Shown here: piece by piece, positions 178 through 18,031 of the stretch
Numbering within the stretch: position 1 is the first letter of the stretch
Layout of the letters: each line of letters begins with the position of its first letter
From: an uncultured virus (IMG/VR IMGVR_UViG_3300025154_000007)
Lineage: Duplodnaviria; Heunggongvirae; Uroviricota; Caudoviricetes
Reading direction: 5' to 3' (one strand)
Length of the DNA stretch: 20,000 nucleotides
Virus record (IMG/VR): IMGVR_UViG_3300025154_000007
Made by a program: the position numbers and the translations under genes
Notes under the pieces: model-generated
What the model was told of the DNA's origin: nothing
Seen by the model: only the letters and a program-made list of their open reading frames with translations
Databases searched by the model: none

Positions 178-1028
178 TTATTTATTCCAATTTCTATTTT
201 ATTTTTTAATAAAGTCATTCCTATGGTAATGAATAATAAAATGATCGCCCCCGCACTTGCCATCCCGTGTTTTGACAAAGTAAACGCCATATCATATATA
301 TTATATACAATCGTGGCAGTATATTCGTAAGGAGCCAAAAACTGTATTGTTTCAAAAATAGCCATTGCGTTTATCGCGGACATGAATCCGAGCATCATCA
401 ATATGGGGAATATCTGCGGAAGTATTATTTTTATTTTTATCTGGAACCATGAAGCTCCGTCAATTTGCGCTTGATCAAACATTGACGTTTCAATTGACAG
501 AATGGAAGCCAGAATCATTATCGCATTTGTTCCTAGGGATGCCATTATGACCACAAAAGAAATAGCCGGTATCCCGGTAATACCTTGTGCAAACCAGACA
601 ATTGATTTTATGCCACAAATATTCAGCAACCAATTCAACGGCCCATTCAAATGAAAAATCCATTTCCACATTGAAGCTATAAATACACCAGCCGAAATTA
701 TCGGAATATAAAAAGCGAACCGAACGAAATCATGCCATTTTTTTGAAAGATTGCAACTGAGCAATGCGAGAAAACCAGCCCCGCCAATCTGCCCGATGAC
801 CAATAAAATAATATAAAAAAGACTATTGAATATTGATTGAATAAATGCCTTATTTGAAAACAAGTTTATGTAGTTTTTCACCCCTACAAACTTGGAAGTT
901 ATAAAATTGGTTTTTTGCATGGATAAAATAAACAATTCATACAAAGGCCAAAATATAAATAATCCCGCCAACAATACGGCAGGAAGCAAAAAGATATATT
1001 TTATTTTATCTCCGGCATGTTTTATCAA
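174..1028 (-). CDS. Carbohydrate ABC transporter permease, MalF/UgpA-type
   Basis: 'FLLPAVLL...FIFWP', 'FVGVKNY..LF', 'FYIP.IS', 'W.WIF...GPLN' and an EAA-loop variant 'SMFDQAQIDGASWFQ...IILP'. About 6 hydrophobic segments. TTG start with GGAG RBS. Confidence 0.92.
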   Translation of the reverse strand: MIKHAGDKIKYIFLLPAVLLAGLFIFWPLYELFILSMQKTNFITSKFVGVKNYINLFSNKAFIQSIFNSLFYIILLVIGQIGGAGFLALLSCNLSKKWHDFVRFAFYIPIISAGVFIASMWKWIFHLNGPLNWLLNICGIKSIVWFAQGITGIPAISFVVIMASLGTNAIMILASILSIETSMFDQAQIDGASWFQIKIKIILPQIFPILMMLGFMSAINAMAIFETIQFLAPYEYTATIVYNIYDMAFTLSKHGMASAGAIILLFITIGMTLLKNKIEIGINK

Positions 1029-5841: not shown

Positions 5842-6726
5842 TTATTCTCCTTCTACCAAAGATCGAATCATTTTGATAGTATCTTCATCCAAGGTTTTCT
5901 TGTTTTTCTTTATCGCACGTTCAATGTTATCAATAATGGATAAGCTAATATTTGTACTTTTCTTGATTCCTTCCACAAATGCAGTTATTCTATTATCCCT
6001 TTCCTCTTCTTTTTTTAAATATGCGTCATCAATCATTTCTATATTATCATCCAAATATATTCTTTCTACTATTTCTTTTTCGGTATCGACATAAAAAACA
6101 GAAGGCTTATATTCTTTTTCATCGGAACTTTGGCGAATAGTACATCCACCATTAATTACATGACGGCCGTCTTTTTCGTAATGGAAGCACTTGTGATTAT
6201 CACCTGTAAAAATGTATTTATAATCAGGGTACTTTTCTAATAATTGACTAGCCGTTATTCCGTCGCAATTAGGCGGAATACCTTTCAAGGCCTTAAACAC
6301 TAATTGATGAATAAATAAAACGTCATCTAATGGCCCGCTTACTTCGGTATTAAAATCTACCCATGCGCCAAATTCAGACATCCCATGAACTATTTTATTA
6401 TGCTTTTTCGATAAACTAAAAAATACTCCGATAGAACTATTATTTACATTTTCCATAGAATGGAATTGCAAATCGTGGTTACCGGCTAAAATATGAACCT
6501 TCTTATTTATATTTGAAAATTCCTCTATCAGCATTATCATCAAATATTCCGGTACGGTTCCTTTATTGAATAAATCACCAACTATACATAAAGGAACATT
6601 ATATTTATTGGCGATGGAAACTATATTCCTGATCATCAATCTTTGCGTTTCATCCCAATCATTATCCGTTCGACAGCGAGGCAAATCGGGCCGGATATGC
6701 AGATCGGAGCAGCTAATTATTTTCAA
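5842..6726 (-). CDS. sbcD: SbcD/Mre11-like metallophosphoesterase nuclease
   Basis: All five calcineurin-like motifs: SDLH, GDLF, GNHD, FIHQ, GDNH. Flanked by the SbcC halves. Confidence 0.9.
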   Translation of the reverse strand: MKIISCSDLHIRPDLPRCRTDNDWDETQRLMIRNIVSIANKYNVPLCIVGDLFNKGTVPEYLMIMLIEEFSNINKKVHILAGNHDLQFHSMENVNNSSIGVFFSLSKKHNKIVHGMSEFGAWVDFNTEVSGPLDDVLFIHQLVFKALKGIPPNCDGITASQLLEKYPDYKYIFTGDNHKCFHYEKDGRHVINGGCTIRQSSDEKEYKPSVFYVDTEKEIVERIYLDDNIEMIDDAYLKKEEERDNRITAFVEGIKKSTNISLSIIDNIERAIKKNKKTLDEDTIKMIRSLVEGE

Positions 6727-7232
6727 TTATGTATCCTTATTCCCATTTCGTGCCTAGATTCAAAAATATCGGCTATTTTTTCTGTTTCCATCAACATTTC
6801 AGCAGTAATACTTTCGACAATGTTATTTAAATTACTATAAAAAAAATTTAGATACACCTCATTACCAATCGAATAATATTTTTGATTCCTACTTGAAAAT
6901 ATACTATCATCATGTCTTAATTCAGCAATATATTTTTTATTTTTATTATAAATATATTTTTTAATGCCATGTAAATATTGCGGATAATTATATAATTTTA
7001 TATCCAACTTTTCAGTGTAATATATATTATTGTACGTTACTAACAACATATATTTATTATTTTTAAATGATTTTTCCTCAACTGACCACCCAAATTTGTA
7101 CCATAAATCATGAAACAATATAAATACATTTTTTATCTTATCCTCTTCTTCTTTTTCAGATAAAGAAATTCGTTTTAATGCTATATCAATACTATTTAAC
7201 ATTATAGCCGTATCACCATTATTTGTAATCAT
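6723..7232 (-). CDS. Hypothetical protein (169 aa, AT-rich)
   Basis: ORF with overlapping start/stop at both ends. Confidence 0.65.
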   Translation of the reverse strand: MITNNGDTAIMLNSIDIALKRISLSEKEEEDKIKNVFILFHDLWYKFGWSVEEKSFKNNKYMLLVTYNNIYYTEKLDIKLYNYPQYLHGIKKYIYNKNKKYIAELRHDDSIFSSRNQKYYSIGNEVYLNFFYSNLNNIVESITAEMLMETEKIADIFESRHEMGIRIHN

Positions 7233-8149
7233 AGTTTACCACCACAAATTGGACAAGTATCTGGCATTTGTTTTTCCAGCTTTTCTATCAATGCGCTATT
7301 CTCTTTTATCTTTTGTACCTCGGCATTATAATTTTCCAGGCAATCATTCAAGTTTTCTATATTATCCAATAATTCTTTTTCTTCTTTTTTTATTTCATCC
7401 AATTGTTCTATTGTTTCTTCAATATTTTTAAATGGTATTTTTAAATGATTTTGTATTATTTTTACATATTTTTTATAATCGACATTCAATGTTTCCAGCC
7501 CGTCAATTTTATCTTCGATGGATTCCGCCAATATTTCAACTTCATTTAATTGATTGTTCAGCCTTTCAGCTTCATCCAGAATAACAAATGTTTCCAGTTC
7601 CTTTTCTATGGAAATTATTTCGGCCTCATATTGTTTTATGTCCTGATTATATTTTCTTCTTTTGCTTTCGGCGTTGTTTAATATTTTGTCGATAAGATCC
7701 AGGCGGATTTCTTTGTTCAGGAATCTGGCAACCTCGGAAGCCGATTCAGATAAAAGAAAAGGCGCATCCATTTGACGCTGGATATTCACTTCGCCGATAT
7801 TCAATATTTTTTCTACTTGTTCGGGAACATCCATCCCGATAGCTTCCAAAGTAATATCGTCATTTATTTTATAGCCGTTAAGATCAGGATTGCGTATTCT
7901 TTTAATCGAATTATTTTCGTTGGTAATTTGTGCGGAAGTGGATTTAAGCGGATTACCTTTCTTGTCCCGATTCCAGTAAGAAATAAATGACAGGCCGGAA
8001 GGACGGTTATAAATAGCCCAGAACAATCCACGAAGGATCGCCGTCTTGCCGGAATTGGAATGGCCGATTATTGCATTGACGTTGGGAGAAAAGTTCAGGG
8101 TACTTTTTTTATGGCTTTGGAAATTACGAAGAATTAGACTTGAAATCAT
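7229..8149 (-). CDS. sbcC: SbcC/Rad50-like ATPase, N-terminal half (Walker A, coiled coil, zinc hook)
   Basis: 'MISSLILRNFQSH', Walker A 'GHSNSGKT', Q-loop 'NIQRQ', long coiled coil, ending 'CPICGGKL*'. Confidence 0.9.
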   Translation of the reverse strand: MISSLILRNFQSHKKSTLNFSPNVNAIIGHSNSGKTAILRGLFWAIYNRPSGLSFISYWNRDKKGNPLKSTSAQITNENNSIKRIRNPDLNGYKINDDITLEAIGMDVPEQVEKILNIGEVNIQRQMDAPFLLSESASEVARFLNKEIRLDLIDKILNNAESKRRKYNQDIKQYEAEIISIEKELETFVILDEAERLNNQLNEVEILAESIEDKIDGLETLNVDYKKYVKIIQNHLKIPFKNIEETIEQLDEIKKEEKELLDNIENLNDCLENYNAEVQKIKENSALIEKLEKQMPDTCPICGGKL

Positions 8150-11731: not shown

Positions 11732-13045
11732 TTGAATGATTTAATATCTATTAAAAAACAAATACTATTAAATACGTATAGAAAAGAAATATGGGATTTT
11801 TATAATTTTTCTATAATAGAATTATTTATATTTGACCGCTTTTTCAATTGGGCTTCTACGGGGCAAATGATTTTTATTATGCACGATGGCAAGAAATTCT
11901 TTTTGATTGATTATTTTTATATTGCCCCTTCTTGGGGAATGTCGGAGATTTATTTGAAAAAGATAATGCTGGGATTATCCGGCTCAATGCCCAAAAACGT
12001 TTCTACTAATCTTAAATATCCGTTGATAAGACTTACCCAAAAAGATGAATATAAAAAATGGAAGTCTTATTATGGGTTTGAAATCGGCACAATGAACACT
12101 TTGATTTCTTGGGATAGTCTAAGTCTGAAAAGAAAAGCATTCCTAGAGGAGTTTATAAATATGGACGGCCTGTTTACCGAATTGCCCATCCAGCCGAAAC
12201 AAATAATAAAAGACAAGGATTTCCATAAAGTCCCCGCCCATTCAGTTTGCCTTGATCTTTACAAATCACTTTTACAAATAAATACAAATAACGGAAAGCG
12301 TTTATTTGTAAACCATATCATACCCGCCGATGCCCATCATTACAACGCCACCTATGCGCATTTCCAGGACGCAATCTTTTGTCTTTATGAAGGTAAATTC
12401 CTTACTACCTACAATTCCGATAAAATGGTCGAATGGTTCCGAATCAAATATAAATATTATTTAAATAATGAATCTATAAAAGAAAAAATACGATCCTGTA
12501 AACATGACTGGAATAAAATAAAAGAAATAGTATTGGAAGCCGGGAACAATTACGCTTTATGGTTTGATGTCAATTCCGAACAATATGATAAAGATGCATT
12601 ACCTAGATCCATCGTAGATTGGATATATTCCGCTCATACGGAGACTTCAATGTTCTATGTTTCATTATTGCAACCGCCGACATCCGCACGGGAAGCCGAG
12701 GCGGAAAGATTGTTCAACAGGATCAACCCGAAATACCGGAAAATATTCTATTCATTGAAACAGGAAAGTTTCGACGGCTACACATTCTGGAATAAAATAA
12801 ATGACCTGATAAAATGGTATGATAAATATTGGGGAAGATTGACCAGACAGGATATTAATTGTGCTTATTGGCTGGATGGAATAACGGCTAATTTCCTGAA
12901 TAACTATAAAGAATGGCTTATGGCTTTCACCGATGAAAAACCCTTCCTTAAAAATATCGGAATAAATAATAATACCTTCGATTTATATATCAAACAGAAA
13001 ATAAAAGATCACGGTATCGAAATCGAAATCCCAAGGAGTTTGTAA
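11732..13045 (+). CDS. Hypothetical protein (437 aa); possible replication/origin-associated protein
   Basis: Long ORF with TTG start. The functional guess rests only on its position next to the palindrome-rich divergence region. Confidence 0.7.
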   Translation: MNDLISIKKQILLNTYRKEIWDFYNFSIIELFIFDRFFNWASTGQMIFIMHDGKKFFLIDYFYIAPSWGMSEIYLKKIMLGLSGSMPKNVSTNLKYPLIRLTQKDEYKKWKSYYGFEIGTMNTLISWDSLSLKRKAFLEEFINMDGLFTELPIQPKQIIKDKDFHKVPAHSVCLDLYKSLLQINTNNGKRLFVNHIIPADAHHYNATYAHFQDAIFCLYEGKFLTTYNSDKMVEWFRIKYKYYLNNESIKEKIRSCKHDWNKIKEIVLEAGNNYALWFDVNSEQYDKDALPRSIVDWIYSAHTETSMFYVSLLQPPTSAREAEAERLFNRINPKYRKIFYSLKQESFDGYTFWNKINDLIKWYDKYWGRLTRQDINCAYWLDGITANFLNNYKEWLMAFTDEKPFLKNIGINNNTFDLYIKQKIKDHGIEIEIPRSL

Positions 13046-13336
13046 ATGGATAAATTATTGGAATTGATATCTAAATGCAAGTGCCATATTTCTTTGGAAA
13101 TAAATGAGCATAGAAATTATTACGCTACAGTGAAGGAAACATTGGATGAATTAAATTCATTGGAATGCCCGCCTAGTTATGATGAAGAAATAAAAAATAA
13201 AATGATAAAATGGGATACAATAATATCATTGCAATTCTATCCTATTACCCCGATTGGTTTTTATAGTTTGTTAGATTCTGATTTGGACAGCATTTTAACC
13301 AGGGCTTTGAATTGTCTAAAGGAGGAAAATAAATGA
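13046..13336 (+). CDS. Phage-type hypothetical protein (96 aa)
   Basis: AAGGAG RBS; 'NEHRNYY.TV' and 'LQFYPITPIGFY' motifs. Confidence 0.7.
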   Translation: MDKLLELISKCKCHISLEINEHRNYYATVKETLDELNSLECPPSYDEEIKNKMIKWDTIISLQFYPITPIGFYSLLDSDLDSILTRALNCLKEENK

Positions 13337-13620
13337 TTTTGAAACCCGGAACAACAGGATGGAAATGGTCCGATGATATCAAAAATAAAATCCGTGCAAC
13401 CTGCCTGAAAATTGACCGAACAAAAGAATGGCGCGAAAAGCGGATAAATGCATCGAACGAAGTCTGCAACAAAAAAGTAATTTGCATCGAAACCGGAAAA
13501 GAATATAAATCGGAATCTGCCGCCGCAAAAGAATTGAAAGTAAAACCGATCCAGATATCGCGGGTTGTCCGAGGCGAGCGGCATACGGTGCATGGTTTAA
13601 GTTTTAGGTTTATCGTATGA
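13333..13620 (+). CDS. NUMOD1/IENR1-type DNA-binding protein with a NUMOD3-like N-terminus and no nuclease domain
   Basis: 'KKVICIETGKEYKSESAAAKELKV....ISRVVRGERHTVHGLSFRF' fits the NUMOD1 HTH pattern; AGGAGG RBS. Confidence 0.8.
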   Translation: MILKPGTTGWKWSDDIKNKIRATCLKIDRTKEWREKRINASNEVCNKKVICIETGKEYKSESAAAKELKVKPIQISRVVRGERHTVHGLSFRFIV

Positions 13621-14012
13621 AAATGTACGATTGTCCGAAATTCAATATTTGTTCAGCTCCGTTATGCCCGCTGAATAAAAACAGTTTGAAAAATGGTGAA
13701 TGGTATCCGAATGATGAAATATGCCATAAAGTTTCGGAACGGAAAAACAAACGCTGGATAAAAATACAGCGACGTATCCAGAAAAAGACAAACGGCAATC
13801 CAGATATCGGAGAATTCAATTTTGCAATGCTCGAAAGGATCAAGGCAGTAGGTTCAAAAATCCACGGCTTGGGTGATATCCGCAAACCACCGCTTTTGCG
13901 TACATGGCTCCAGAATCATCCGCCTATCGATACTAAATCCATGACAGTAATCAAACGGCACTGGGAAGCAGGTAAACGACTTGCTGAGTACAGGGTTAAA
14001 TCGAATGTCTGA
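13617..14012 (+). CDS. Cys-rich hypothetical protein (131 aa)
   Basis: 'CPKFNICSAPLCPL...IC' cluster; ATGA overlap. Confidence 0.65.
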   Translation: MKMYDCPKFNICSAPLCPLNKNSLKNGEWYPNDEICHKVSERKNKRWIKIQRRIQKKTNGNPDIGEFNFAMLERIKAVGSKIHGLGDIRKPPLLRTWLQNHPPIDTKSMTVIKRHWEAGKRLAEYRVKSNV

Positions 14013-14325
14013 CGCCAAAAAGTACCGGTTTTCCTTACGGAATTTGACCAAGCTTGTGTTTGACGTATCTTTCCTAGTCCGAGGGTTTGGGTATCTTTTT
14101 TCATCGCATTTCAGCGGTTATGGATCGCGTCCTCGGAACGATACCCAGTATAAGTTCAAGGATCGTACGTAAAACGGGTTAATTGTTTAATTCTATATAG
14201 TGTAAGGGGTTATTTTATCATGATTAGTGCCATTTACCTTCAAAAACAAATAAAAATATTTTTACGATTTTTTATAACTCTATATACTATATACATTTAT
14301 AAATGTTTTATAAGTGCGTTTTTTG

Positions 14326-14355
14326 TTTACAAAATTAGAAAACCCGTGATATACT
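14326..14355 (+). promoter_or_regulatory. Host sigma-70-type promoter heading the small-ORF cluster
   Basis: TTTACA (14326-14331), 18 nt, extended -10 TGaTATACT (14347-14355); AT-rich upstream; AAGGAG RBS follows. Confidence 0.6.
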
Positions 14356-14380
14356 ATAGATAGTTAGTAAGGAGAGCAGT

Positions 14381-14578
14381 ATGGAAATGACGGCAGCGGT
14401 AAAAGATAAGGTGACTGGAGAAAAATCCTCTATAACCCGCGACTGGGATATGACTAAAAAAGAATTTAGAGTCGAGCTTAATCGAAATGGCTATACGGTT
14501 ATTGGTAGGATTTTTACTGAGGAGGATATGAGCACTCGTCGTGGTCGTCTTTATTGGTGCCATGGGGTAAAAATTTAA
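14381..14578 (+). CDS. Hypothetical protein (65 aa)
   Basis: AAGGAG RBS; first gene after the promoter. Confidence 0.7.
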   Translation: MEMTAAVKDKVTGEKSSITRDWDMTKKEFRVELNRNGYTVIGRIFTEEDMSTRRGRLYWCHGVKI

Positions 14579-14631
14579 TCGTAGATAGCCGCCTACGGGC
14601 GGTAATGCGGCGAGCCGGTCCAAAGCCCGGC
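14579..14631 (+). ncRNA. Twister-like self-cleaving ribozyme, circularly permuted (P1 closed by a hairpin)
   Basis: UCGUA-GAUAG-[CCGCC UACG GGCGG]-UAA-UGCGGC-GA-[GCCGG UCCAAAGC CCGGC]. Shows the twister UAA cleavage motif, P2 UGCGG/UCGUA, P4 with an L4 close to GGUNNCAAGCCC, and GC/GC T2. The T1 pairing is imperfect. Confidence 0.65.
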
Positions 14632-14644
14632 AAAGGAGCTTTTT

Positions 14645-14836
14645 ATGAAAGCATTGATGGCTGATTCGGTTTATGGCGTTTACGAAGTAGACGGGTTCAT
14701 CGGCGATACGTAAATCAGGATGGCGATATCCTATTTCGCCCTTAAAACTCTAGGCGACGATACGATCATCGCAGCGTGGGTTTCCGAAGAAATATTCGCC
14801 AAGATCGATGCGGAATACGGGATCAAAAAATTATGA
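14645..14836 (+). pseudogene. 63-codon reading frame with an in-frame TAA at codon 23 (pseudogene or readthrough gene)
   Basis: AAGGAG RBS; MKALMADSVYGVYEVDGFIGDT*IRMAISYFALKTLGDDTIIAAWVSEEIFAKIDAEYGIKKL*. The final TGA forms an ATGA overlap with the next gene. Confidence 0.55.
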
Positions 14837-15021
14837 AAATCAAAAAAGAATGCGAACGCCGAAGCCTTCGCGGATGCGCCGGATGCCCGGCCCTTCATTC
14901 ACTCTGCGACAAGGAAAAAGTCCCGTCAAAAAGAAAAACCCAAAATGATAAAATGTCCCTTGAAATGGCAAAGGAAGCCGAAGAGGCTTTCAAGTTTTCT
15001 TTTATTCAGGAGGGTAATTGA
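14833..15021 (+). CDS. Small Cys-containing hypothetical protein (62 aa)
   Basis: MKIKKECERRSLRGCAGCPALHSLC...; start via ATGA overlap. Confidence 0.55.
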   Translation: MKIKKECERRSLRGCAGCPALHSLCDKEKVPSKRKTQNDKMSLEMAKEAEEAFKFSFIQEGN

Positions 15022-15022
15022 A

Positions 15023-15181
15023 ATGGTAGTAGTTATTGAAATAGACGACGGTTCTTTTTCTACGGGCGAATTGTATGGCGATAAAATAGAAGAAAAAATA
15101 ACAATAAAAAATAAGGATGAAAATGGGATGCCATTTTATCAAAGCGGAAAATTCGTAGAAATACTTGAAGGGGGAAATTAA
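15023..15181 (+). CDS. Hypothetical protein (52 aa)
   Basis: AGGAGG RBS, MVVVIEIDDG... Confidence 0.65.
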   Translation: MVVVIEIDDGSFSTGELYGDKIEEKITIKNKDENGMPFYQSGKFVEILEGGN

Positions 15182-15331
15182 ATGGCGGCTAACGTAGAAA
15201 CCTGTTTCCTTTATCGACGGGAACAAACTTCTCAAATCGGCGCAGGAAGCAATCGAAAAAGTAGCGGCTTGAATTTGGATTATATGGCGCGGACGACAAA
15301 GGGCGTCGGCCATAAAGGGGGCTTGACATGA
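15182..15331 (+). CDS. Hypothetical protein (49 aa), possibly a degenerate gene
   Basis: AGGGGG RBS; ends in an ATGA overlap. The +1 frame also looks protein-like. Confidence 0.4.
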   Translation: MAANVETCFLYRREQTSQIGAGSNRKSSGLNLDYMARTTKGVGHKGGLT

Positions 15332-15453
15332 AATATAAGAAGCGGATGGAAAATCTTGAAGCGCGGCGCAAGGAATATGAAAAGATGAAGGCGGAAGGGA
15401 AGGACGTGCATAATTATTCCGGCTTCAAAATGCCCGGAAGCAACAAAAAGTAA
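15328..15453 (+). CDS. Small basic hypothetical protein (41 aa)
   Basis: MKYKKRMENLEARRKEYEKM...GFKMPGSNKK; AGGGGG RBS. Confidence 0.6.
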   Translation: MKYKKRMENLEARRKEYEKMKAEGKDVHNYSGFKMPGSNKK

Positions 15454-15464
15454 AGGGGAATATC

Positions 15465-15623
15465 ATGCAGATGAAGAAATGGAACAGGAAGAACGGCGGA
15501 TACAAGGCGAAATCGCAGGCCGAGTGGTTTTATTTTTACATGAGGACATCCGGCGAGGATAAAGCCCAAAAATATCTGGAAAAGATCCAGACTGAAAAAA
15601 TGACCGCACTGATGAGCCGCTGA
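15465..15623 (+). CDS. Hypothetical protein (52 aa); 3' end overlaps the hammerhead
   Basis: AGGGG RBS; MQMKKWNRKNGGYKAKSQAEWFYFY...TALMSR*. Confidence 0.55.
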   Translation: MQMKKWNRKNGGYKAKSQAEWFYFYMRTSGEDKAQKYLEKIQTEKMTALMSR

Positions 15624-15657
15624 AATTGCGGCGAAACCGGCTCCTGCCGGTATGCGG
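15604..15657 (+). ncRNA. Type I hammerhead ribozyme
   Basis: Stem I CCGCA/UGCGG; core CUGAUGA (15609-15615); stem II GCCGC-UGAAAUU-GCGGC; GAAA (15633-15636); stem III CCGGC-UCCU-GCCGG; cleavage triplet GUA (cut 3' of 15652). All core nucleotides are intact. Confidence 0.93.
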
Positions 15658-15682
15658 GAAATATTGATTGAAAGGAGTCAAG

Positions 15683-16606
15683 ATGAAAGCGTATAAAGTT
15701 TTTGATTCAGAATGGAAATGCCGGGGATTCCAGTATAAAGTTGGCGAAACGTATGAGATGAAAGAAAAACCGATTTTATGTGAACAGGGATTTCATGCCT
15801 GCAAAAAAGTAAGCGATTGTTTCAATTACCAAGAATTCAATCCAAAAAACAAAGTTGCCGAAGTTGACTTGATCGGGGATATCGTTGGCGCAGACGGCGA
15901 TAAACAGGCAACGAATAAAATAAATATAATAAAAGAAATCAGCTGGGGCGAGATGCTTGAATTAGCAAATTCCGGTTTGGGGAATAGTGGCTACTGTAAT
16001 AGTGGCGACTGGAATAGTGGCGACCGGAATAGTGGCCACCGGAATAGTGGCGACCGGAATAGTGGCGACCGGAATAGTGGCGACCGGAATAGTGGCCTAT
16101 TTAATAGTGGCGACCGGAATAGTGGCCACCGGAATAGTGGCGACCGGAATAGTGGCTACTGTAATAGTGGCTACTGTAATAGTGGCGACCGGAATAGTGG
16201 CCACCGGAATAGTGGCCACCGGAATAGTGGCGACTGGAATAGTGGCGACCGGAATAGTGGCCTATTTAATAGTGGCGACTGGAATAGTGGCCTATTTAAT
16301 ACCGATGAACCTTTTATACGGATGTTTAACCGTGATACTGCATTTAAAAGAAAGGAAATAAATATTCCACAATGCTTCTATTTTGATTTAACTTCCTGGA
16401 TCGGGCATGATACGGCTACGGATGAAGAAAAAGAAACTTATAAAAAAGAAATAGAAGTATGCGGCGGCTTCCTGAAAACTATTTCTTATAAAGACGCATT
16501 CAAACGTGCATGGGAAAATGCGAGTGAGTCGGAAAAAGAAGAAGTGAAAGAGCTTCCTAATTTTGATACTGATATATTTTTTGAAATATCAGGTATCCGC
16601 ATTTAA
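15683..16606 (+). CDS. Phage pentapeptide-repeat (NSGxx) protein with DUF7666-like N-terminal domain
   Basis: 'KAYKVFD..WKCRGFQYKVGETY......LCEQGFHAC', then (NSGxx)n and a C-terminal 'LPNFD.DIFFEISGI'. Start moved to ATG 15683 (AAGGAG RBS). Confidence 0.88.
   Translation: MKAYKVFDSEWKCRGFQYKVGETYEMKEKPILCEQGFHACKKVSDCFNYQEFNPKNKVAEVDLIGDIVGADGDKQATNKINIIKEISWGEMLELANSGLGNSGYCNSGDWNSGDRNSGHRNSGDRNSGDRNSGDRNSGLFNSGDRNSGHRNSGDRNSGYCNSGYCNSGDRNSGHRNSGHRNSGDWNSGDRNSGLFNSGDWNSGLFNTDEPFIRMFNRDTAFKRKEINIPQCFYFDLTSWIGHDTATDEEKETYKKEIEVCGGFLKTISYKDAFKRAWENASESEKEEVKELPNFDTDIFFEISGIRI
15983..16297 (+). repeat. Coding tandem repeat, 21 x 15 bp (AATAGTGGC-NNNNNN)
   Basis: Invariant 9-mer plus one of five hexamers: GACCGG, CACCGG, GACTGG, TACTGT, CTATTT. 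Confidence 0.97.
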
Positions 16607-16620
16607 TCAAAGGAATTAAT

Positions 16621-16797
16621 ATGATAAATGAAAATGTATATATTTTATGTTTTGACAGAGTAAAATATATATTCGACCGGGAAAACAACAAATATAAAAA
16701 GCAGACTTCGTTTCCCGGCAAATGTGGATTGATCGAAGATTCCAGCAAGGAAGAATTCGACAAGGCAATAAAACAATCCCAGGAGGTGTCGGTATGA
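16621..16797 (+). CDS. Hypothetical protein (58 aa)
   Basis: AAGGA RBS; MINENVYILCFDRVKY...; ATGA overlap with the next gene. Confidence 0.6.
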   Translation: MINENVYILCFDRVKYIFDRENNKYKKQTSFPGKCGLIEDSSKEEFDKAIKQSQEVSV

Positions 16798-17108
16798 CAC
16801 TCGCGGAAGATTTGGATCGGCGTAGCAATCTGTTGCTTTCGCCGACTTCGCGGAAATGTTCCATGGATTGTATCAAACTATGGATCAAAAAATACAATGA
16901 ACTTAAAACTTTCAAGTGGCAAATGAGCATCGAAGAATTGGAACATCCGGCAGATGAACGTGAAAAAAAGAAACTTGATTCCATGGGCATAAATATAAAA
17001 ATATTGGGCGGGAACAATCTCCATGTCTACAAGGAAGTCCACGACAACAAAACCGGAAAGCGGTTGACTTGGGCGGAATTGATCGAACGCGCGAAAGGGA
17101 GGAAATAA
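16794..17108 (+). CDS. Hypothetical protein (104 aa, MTLAEDLDRR...)
   Basis: AGGAGGT RBS before ATG 16794. Confidence 0.7.
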   Translation: MTLAEDLDRRSNLLLSPTSRKCSMDCIKLWIKKYNELKTFKWQMSIEELEHPADEREKKKLDSMGINIKILGGNNLHVYKEVHDNKTGKRLTWAELIERAKGRK

Positions 17109-17109
17109 A

Positions 17110-17505
17110 ATGAGTATTATTGATTTAGGCGACGATACCATAACAATTATGGTTAAAATGGCAAAAGGAAATCCTGGCGCGGTAACGGCTTTGATTGTAT
17201 TATTTGACAATACTACTGAAATTGATCCTGATAATGCATTTGGCCCATTCGGCGGAATTATTCTTCTTGATACATTCGGGATTTATGGAACGGATATCTA
17301 TGTTTTATATAATGACATTTGCGCTAGACAAATTCATTTGATGCTTGCCGTACTGCGTGCCGGACAATTGGGTATCATTTCTTCTTCGGTAATCAAGGAC
17401 GCGGCTTCACGGCAGGATCGAACCGGGAAAACTTTGATTAATGCTCAAGGGCTTTACGATAAAGTAAAGGAACAATTACCGAATTTTGATTCAGGGAGAA
17501 AATGA
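17110..17505 (+). CDS. Phage-type hypothetical protein ('MAKGNPGA' family)
   Basis: 'KMAKGNPGAVTAL' and 'LDTFGIYGTDIYVLYNDIC' motifs; GGAGG RBS. Confidence 0.78.
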   Translation: MSIIDLGDDTITIMVKMAKGNPGAVTALIVLFDNTTEIDPDNAFGPFGGIILLDTFGIYGTDIYVLYNDICARQIHLMLAVLRAGQLGIISSSVIKDAASRQDRTGKTLINAQGLYDKVKEQLPNFDSGRK

Positions 17506-17506
17506 A

Positions 17507-17827
17507 ATGACGCATCCACAATTCACTTCGCAGGCGGCTTATGACAAGACGCACCAAAGAATCAAGGAATTGAAAAAGGCGTATCTTTCAAAAGAATTAA
17601 AAGAAAATGATATCAAGGATATTTTGCGAAGCGAGCTTGGCTACAGCGATTGGGGCGCAAACCATTTCATCCAGAACATAAAAGATGAAACGGAAGCGAA
17701 CAAAAAGCGCATGGCCGAAATAAAGAAAACGAAAAAGCTGATAAAAGAAAGCAAGAATCCTGATGAAATCCAGGAAATGAAAAGCCGGATCAAGTACCTG
17801 GAAATGATGATTCAGGAAACCAAATAA
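17507..17827 (+). CDS. Hypothetical helical protein (106 aa)
   Basis: GGGAG RBS; MTHPQFTSQ... Confidence 0.7.
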   Translation: MTHPQFTSQAAYDKTHQRIKELKKAYLSKELKENDIKDILRSELGYSDWGANHFIQNIKDETEANKKRMAEIKKTKKLIKESKNPDEIQEMKSRIKYLEMMIQETK

Positions 17828-17839
17828 AGGAGTACGAAA

Positions 17840-18031
17840 ATGGATAATTTTTTAATTGGAAAAAAGGTAAAAATATTGGTAGATAATATTTATAAAAATA
17901 GAACTGGAATTATTCAAATGATTTATCCGCGAGGTTTATTTACAGATCGCACTATTTATCAAATAAAACTAAATGAACATCTATCTGGACAGTATACTGA
18001 TACCCAATTTGAATTATTGGAAAATCAATAA
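17840..18031 (+). CDS. Small KOW/SH3-like hypothetical protein
   Basis: 'IGKKVKIL...YKNRTGII' pattern; AAGGAG RBS. Confidence 0.6.
   Translation: MDNFLIGKKVKILVDNIYKNRTGIIQMIYPRGLFTDRTIYQIKLNEHLSGQYTDTQFELLENQ

Follow-up and report, generated by a model that had tools for sequence, protein, structure and literature searches.

A type I hammerhead motif at a gene boundary of a provirus operon, and the placement of stop codons across its family

When the last codons of a gene also form the 5′ half of a self-cleaving RNA, does cleavage depend on the ribosomes that terminate there, or is the overlap incidental to a ribozyme that cuts the transcript constitutively? This question is raised by a locus of an uncultured virus of the class Caudoviricetes (IMG/VR record IMGVR_UViG_3300025154_000007), of which a stretch of 20,000 nucleotides, hereafter designated as the window, was analyzed. 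A sequence-only reading of this window had described a hammerhead ribozyme overlapping the stop codon of a small open reading frame (ORF).

The hammerhead motif and its family

The motif is located on the plus strand and is composed of the following elements, read from the sequence unless otherwise stated.

15604-15657, plus strand: type I hammerhead ribozyme (sequence, MFE fold, covariance model R1, descriptor control)
15604-15608, plus strand: 5′ strand of stem I, CCGCA, pairing with 15653-15657
15609-15615, plus strand: core strand, CUGAUGA
15616-15620, plus strand: 5′ strand of stem II, GCCGC, pairing with 15628-15632
15621-15627, plus strand: loop II, UGAAAUU
15628-15632, plus strand: 3′ strand of stem II, GCGGC
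15633-15635, plus strand: core GAA
15636-15641, plus strand: 5′ strand of stem III, ACCGGC, including A15.1 and pairing with 15646-15651
15642-15645, plus strand: loop of stem III, UCCU
15646-15651, plus strand: 3′ strand of stem III, GCCGGU, including U16.1
15652, plus strand: H17, an A, with the predicted cut between 15652 and 15653 (A15652/U15653)
15653-15657, plus strand: 3′ strand of stem I, UGCGG

The core of hammerhead ribozymes is characterized by the residues C3 to A9 and G12 to A14, an A15.1-U16.1 pair, a residue H17 that is not G, and the base pairs adjoining the core. Here, the core strand at 15609-15615 reads as C3-U4-G5-A6-N7-G8-A9 (CUGANGA), G12-A13-A14 are found at 15633-15635, A15636 and U15651 form the A15.1-U16.1 pair, and H17 is A15652, giving a GUA triplet. 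Both pairs adjoining the core, G15616-C15632 (10.1-11.1) and A15608-U15653 (1.1-2.1), are standard. With an open stem I that bears the 5′ and 3′ ends and with stems II and III closed by loops, the motif displays a type I topology, its stems I, II and III having 5, 5 and 6 bp, respectively, when A15.1-U16.1 is counted in the latter. Folding of the 54-mer gives precisely this three-way junction as the MFE structure (-26.3 kcal/mol, z = -3.66, with 0 of 200 shuffles as stable), which is retained upon folding with 181 nt of context.

A relaxed type I descriptor, comprising the core, GAAA, a U followed by H, and three stems of at least 4 bp each, identified this one site in the 20-kb window and gave 1 match per 1000 random 20-kb sequences (first-order Markov with the window's dinucleotide transitions, both strands). 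A family pattern (core + N4 + TGAAA + N6 + CGAAAC), derived from the window's own core and loop II, was found in at least 120 rows of viral contigs and in 64 stretches of a one-genome-per-species collection, including Legionella, Clostridia, Thaumarchaeota and others. Among the matches listed, 189 carry this pattern (124 viral, 64 genomic and the window itself); all five stem II pairs (5/5) occur in 171 of these 189, a pairing that the pattern does not demand, and 151 pass the type I descriptor.

Covariance model R1 is based on 40 unique short viral examples, from which 7 rows with a MAFFT 3′ misalignment were removed, leaving an alignment of 33 rows that excludes the window. In this alignment, 97.9% of the cells pair, versus 25-37% with slid partners, the rows having been pre-chosen by the stem descriptor, so that pairing in stems I and III was partly selected for; changes on both sides were observed in 12 of the 15 pairs. 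R1 matched the window at 15598-15663 with 64.5 bits and a rough E value of 1.4e-18, over model positions 1-64 of 64, and this was its only match within 56,199 bases.

Models available in Rfam are poorly efficient in detecting this motif. At the gathering score, the search with Rfam 15 made no hammerhead call (clan CL00010) on it, and the listing at E values up to 10 comprised a partial Hammerhead_3 (RF00008) match with an E value of 1.1 and no match to Hammerhead_1 (RF00163). The gathering score of the Rfam hammerhead models was reached neither at 15585-15642 of the window nor in any (0/20) of 20 sister family loci (L005...L194), the best score among them being 28.7 for Hammerhead_1, versus 34, in L025. 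The catalytic core is identical to that of Hammerhead_1 and Hammerhead_3, and stem II and loop II of the window resemble the Hammerhead_3 consensus; in contrast to these models, above whose gathering scores it does not rise, the window has a type I motif with an open stem I of 5 bp followed by unpaired A-rich flanks. Since the Rfam 15 hammerhead models miss this subfamily at their thresholds, routine annotation leaves such sites unmarked.

These results bear on several points of the sequence-only reading, which had placed a complete type I hammerhead, with its full core and a GUA triplet, at 15604-15657 and its cut after 15652. The complete motif is supported by the sequence, the MFE junction and the R1 score, and both coordinates match the sequence as read here. 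Of the three 5-bp stems that it had described, stems I and II are as stated and stem III is 6 bp long if A15.1-U16.1 is counted. It had also proposed cmsearch with the Rfam hammerhead models as a check, and this failed to recover the motif above gathering, with Hammerhead_3 giving the best score (22.3 versus 48.5 bits).

Fast hammerhead cleavage at low Mg2+ requires a tertiary contact between stem I and loop II. In type I hammerheads of the Schistosoma type, stem I is open and about 5-6 bp separate the core from the unpaired 5′-strand bases that contact loop II. The window shares the open stem I, and its presumed partners are the A at -1, the U/A at -2 and loop II (UGAAAYY); in contrast to the Schistosoma type, no continuation of stem I is evident. 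An A at -1 is present in 76 of the 82 family clusters, and the window combines this A with the most frequent loop II, TGAAATT (30/82 clusters). As judged from these conserved flank and loop bases, the contact required by natural hammerheads may be formed here. The window motif is probably a member of an abundant phage and prophage subfamily, defined by stems I (open) and II of 5 bp each, a loop II UGAAAYY and a conserved A located just 5′ of stem I, an assignment made jointly with the functional reading given below.

Ribozymes and genes of the provirus operon

The genetic surroundings of the hammerhead comprise the following features.

14326-14355, plus strand: promoter-like site, TTTACA, 18 nt, TATACT with TG; a weak consensus match in the AT-rich gap before the first small ORF
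14580-14630, plus strand: twister-P5 ribozyme (Rfam RF02684; 48.4 bits versus a gathering score of 37.6, E 1.7e-07)
15465-15623, plus strand: small ORF of 52 aa ending in TALMSR, with a Shine-Dalgarno-like AAGGGGA upstream
15595-15600, plus strand: A6 run, directly preceding the UGA at 15601-15603
15601-15603, plus strand: UGA triplet at -3, directly 5′ of stem I and one base out of phase with the small ORF
15671-15677, plus strand: Shine-Dalgarno sequence AAAGGAG, read from the sequence
15683-15685, plus strand: ATG of the downstream gene; in the protein read from it, the match to Pfam DUF7666 begins with residue 1
15683-16606, plus strand: downstream gene, 307 aa, with a DUF7666 N-terminal domain and Pentapeptide_2 repeats, phrog_14105 (Pfam, PHROG)

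The nearest record (G001) is a 39.8-kb IMG/VR provirus with 100% identity over the 1401 bases tested. The twister-P5 starts 1 nt past the TAA (14576-14578) of an ORF located at 14381-14578 and precedes the hammerhead by about 1 kb, both ribozymes being encoded on one strand of a single operon of small genes. The interval between them contains about seven small, closely packed ORFs, and family searches (Pfam, PHROG) gave no match for those of them that were scanned. Rfam analysis of the whole 39.8-kb provirus revealed no ribozyme beyond the twister, and R1 detected only the window's hammerhead in the window and the second half of this provirus (L130). A blastn search of region 13000-18000 against a collection of named phages gave no match. 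The promoter-like site at 14326-14355 is not significant alone, with 20 such consensus sites found versus 20.2 expected. An ATG with a Shine-Dalgarno sequence is located 15 nt past the twister-P5, and the succession of stop codon, ribozyme and next gene is the same there as at the hammerhead. Elsewhere in the window, adjacent Metallophos and AAA_23/SMC_N-like ORFs on the minus strand (5842-8149) resemble an SbcCD-like nuclease pair, and an ABC-transporter permease fragment (174-1028) may be host DNA at the provirus edge.

In 39 of the 82 family clusters, the 100 nt past the cut include a Shine-Dalgarno sequence and the start codon of an ORF with at least 40 codons, at a median of 35 nt. Two ideas concerning the downstream region were rejected. 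Sequestration of the ribosome-binding site in the leader left after cleavage found no support in folding, which gave no significant structure (z = -0.35). A tie between the ribozyme and the DUF7666/pentapeptide gene was dismissed on the basis of three viral relatives of this gene (41-64% identity) with neither a hammerhead nor another ribozyme upstream.

We regard it as probable (at roughly 0.7) that this type I hammerhead is active and cleaves itself constitutively, being located between two co-directional provirus genes and dividing a polycistronic mRNA together with the twister-P5. As predicted from the sequence, the 54-nt motif would fold soon after transcription and undergo a single irreversible cut after A15652. 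The upstream piece would comprise the whole small ORF with its stop codon and would have the hairpins of stems II and III and a 2′,3′-cyclic phosphate at its 3′ end, and the downstream piece would start with a 5′-OH, 30 nt before the ATG, with a leader carrying the ribosome-binding site. The two ribozymes would split one long transcript into units with independent stability and translation, and the hammerhead would resemble a natural 'insulator' or an intercistronic processing site that does not depend on the host. With RiboJ insulators and with the RNase III sites between phage T7 early genes, a cut made tens of nt upstream of a ribosome-binding site uncouples the gene, and the upstream piece retains a 3′-terminal hairpin; the likeness to the window is a mechanistic analogy only, neither of the two being a family that its element could join. 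The effect of cleavage on gene expression is a matter of conjecture; in Firmicutes, a 5′-OH end can be destabilizing (glmS ribozyme, RNase J1).

The layout of ribozymes punctuating phage operons has been known since 2011, the main text of Perreault 2011 (PMC3088659) describing prophage hammerheads that flank genes, with three such arrangements cleaved in vitro, and proposing the processing of transcripts into gene-length mRNAs, a function that was left unproven. Two reviews likewise discuss the processing of phage transcripts in their text and consider the function of bacterial and phage hammerheads as still open (PMC6155905, PMC6765202). With at least two self-cleaving ribozymes on one strand, among small genes and in a provirus, the window qualifies as a cluster of the type described by Perreault. 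As far as prophage and phage ribozyme clusters are described in the text of these sources (PMC3088659, PMC6155905, PMC6765202), the window shares their canonical core, intergenic position, co-directional small genes, provirus context and nearby second ribozyme class. Nothing essential differs from the clusters presented in the text of Perreault 2011 (PMC3088659), the particulars of the window being the 20-nt ORF overlap and the stop in loop II. The locus is one more clean, if ordinary, example of a known layout.

Stop codons at the 5′ edge of the ribozyme

The small ORF reads ACC GCA CUG AUG AGC CGC UGA across stem I, the core and stem II, with its last six codons and its stop inside the 5′ half of the hammerhead. 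Its UGA (15621-15623) corresponds to bases 1-3 of loop II. With 29 nt separating this stop from the cut, the ORF would remain complete on the upstream RNA after cleavage. Two statements of the sequence-only reading concern this boundary and agree with the present analysis: that the ORF ends in TALMSR with its UGA in loop II, as is confirmed by the sequence and the ORF list, and that a new 5′ end would arise 30 nt before the pentapeptide-repeat gene, which is the length of leader separating the predicted 15652/15653 cut from the ATG at 15683.

The position of upstream stop codons was compared across the family, which comprises 83 clusters including the window. The upstream ORF was defined as the longest ORF with a stop at or after -60 relative to base 1 of stem I and with at least 50 codons. 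Such an ORF was present in 66 clusters, in which its stop was distributed as follows.

At or before -16: 9 of 66 clusters
At -15 to -4: 11 of 66 clusters
At -3: 14 of 66 clusters
At -2: 13 of 66 clusters
In the core UGA: 9 of 66 clusters
In the loop II UGA: 1 of 66 clusters (this window), a lower bound, as the longest-ORF rule is crude
Elsewhere inside the ribozyme: 2 of 66 clusters
Beyond the cut: 7 of 66 clusters

The upstream ORF stops exactly at the 5′ edge of the ribozyme (-3/-2) in 27 of the 66 clusters and further upstream in 20. Irrespective of ORFs, a stop triplet occurs at -3 or -2 in 51/82 clusters, versus a background of about 4.9/82 per position. At the level of the family, the regularity is that stops are fused to the 5′ edge of the ribozyme far above chance and that ORFs seldom read in; we infer that its normal layout is a stop codon, then the ribozyme. 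The term 'stop codon' has 0 occurrences in the main text of Perreault 2011 (PMC3088659), a count that applies to the main text as distinct from its supplements. Stops are built into the hammerhead sequence in two frames, UGAUGA in the first and the UGA of loop II in the second, and it is at this latter UGA that the second-longest ORF (50-74 codons) of five loci (L035, L134, L155, L177 and L188) terminates.

Because the family-typical UGA at -3 is present in the window but lies one base out of frame, the overlap looks like a phase accident, rescued by the built-in UGA of the ribozyme. The 20-nt overlap would then be incidental to cleavage, an out-of-phase ORF being caught by the loop II UGA that every member carries. 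With one A less in the A6 run, a state that may be ancestral, the small ORF would end at the UGA at 15601-15603, as in the canonical layout. The longer C-terminus is kept in all four variants (4/4) of the protein. Relatives of this ORF were found only in its own 90% cluster (4 near-identical members, with the representative on 15 contigs), and it has no Pfam or PHROG match. A 29-mer specific for stem II matched one identical metagenome locus and nothing in the one-genome-per-species collection. In a Clostridia MAG (L134), the same AUGA flank is found and a long ORF ends at that UGA, which is suggestive only.

The other reading of the overlap, as a device coupling cleavage to translation, had been put forward in the sequence-only reading. 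Ribosomes translating the small ORF or terminating on it would open the ribozyme from stem I through the core to stem II, so that cleavage and downstream expression would track its translation. The arrangement lends itself to this proposal: given the footprint of a ribosome, one that terminates with six codons and a stop inside the ribozyme would have to melt its 5′ half, and the excess of stop triplets at -3/-2 suggests that a ribosome meets the ribozyme in most members. However, an overlap as deep as that of the window was counted in a single cluster of the 66; the core UGA is the stop in nine further clusters, and in 47/66 the ORF is already closed 5′ of the ribozyme. The small ORF lacks relatives outside its own cluster, leaving no conservation behind a regulatory leader. 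Furthermore, the A at -1 is kept even when no stop triplet is formed, which suggests that the junction sequence is constrained at the RNA level, and cleavage being irreversible, one chance to fold would suffice, with a ribosome probably occupying the stop only briefly. Considering the rarity of the loop II stop and the isolation of the ORF, this coupling is not upheld as the function of the overlap, and translation-gated cleavage appears unlikely.

A broader version, in which the junction of stop codon and hammerhead is a selected design of this phage family, is equally doubtful. Transient melting of stem I by each terminating ribosome might make folding and cutting coincide with the first translation round, or the cut might shape the protection of the upstream 3′ end. 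If this were true, the window would be a natural extreme variant, in which ribosomes run 20 nt into the ribozyme. As a natural exception, it could serve to examine whether ribosomes and ribozymes disturb each other.

Remaining alternatives and other loci of the family

Constitutive cleavage between the two genes, which we favor, has also to be weighed against an inactive motif, whose GC-rich hairpins would serve as a terminator, an attenuator or a nuclease site, or which would be a decayed copy. A consensus scan indeed listed 15642-15659, a stretch shared with stem III and the 3′ strand of stem I, as a terminator-like hairpin, and the scores obtained with Rfam stay below threshold. Yet, the terminator count of the region does not depart from background (9 versus 6.1 +/- 2.7) and the tail of this hairpin, AATATTGATT, is a poor U-tract, two reasons for which a terminator at this position was rejected. 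More generally, every catalytic position is intact and R1 fits the motif from end to end, which would be unexpected for a decayed copy or a plain hairpin, and inactivity is thus highly unlikely.

Finally, the two ribozymes, located on one strand about 1 kb apart on either side of the small ORFs, might excise an RNA of about 1 kb (ca. 14.6-15.65 kb) whose ends, 5′-OH and 2′,3′-cyclic phosphate being substrates of RtcB-type ligases, would be sealed by a host ligase to give a circle or some other distinct RNA species, but nothing in the sequence brings both ends together, and circular or spliced products, raised as a possibility in the main text of Perreault 2011 (PMC3088659), are described there as undetectable, making this scarcely credible.

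Beyond the window, two loci of the family display additional RNA elements. The largest viral cluster among the matches listed, represented by L013, comprises 27 loci with a stem I of TGTCA and has no long ORF upstream. In L013, the hammerhead (280-340, minus strand) is located about 50 nt downstream of a match to alpha or permuted tmRNA (393-563, minus strand; 58.9 bits), which is cut by the end of the locus. Rather than standing behind a protein gene, the ribozyme of this cluster may serve to trim a phage-borne tmRNA at its 3′ end. Legionella and other Legionellaceae account for about one third of the 64 genomic pattern matches, and in Legionella moravica (L135), a RAGATH-32 RNA (97 bits) and a partial RAGATH-13 (L135:179-257 and L135:1-46, both on the minus strand) are found within 300 nt of the family hammerhead.
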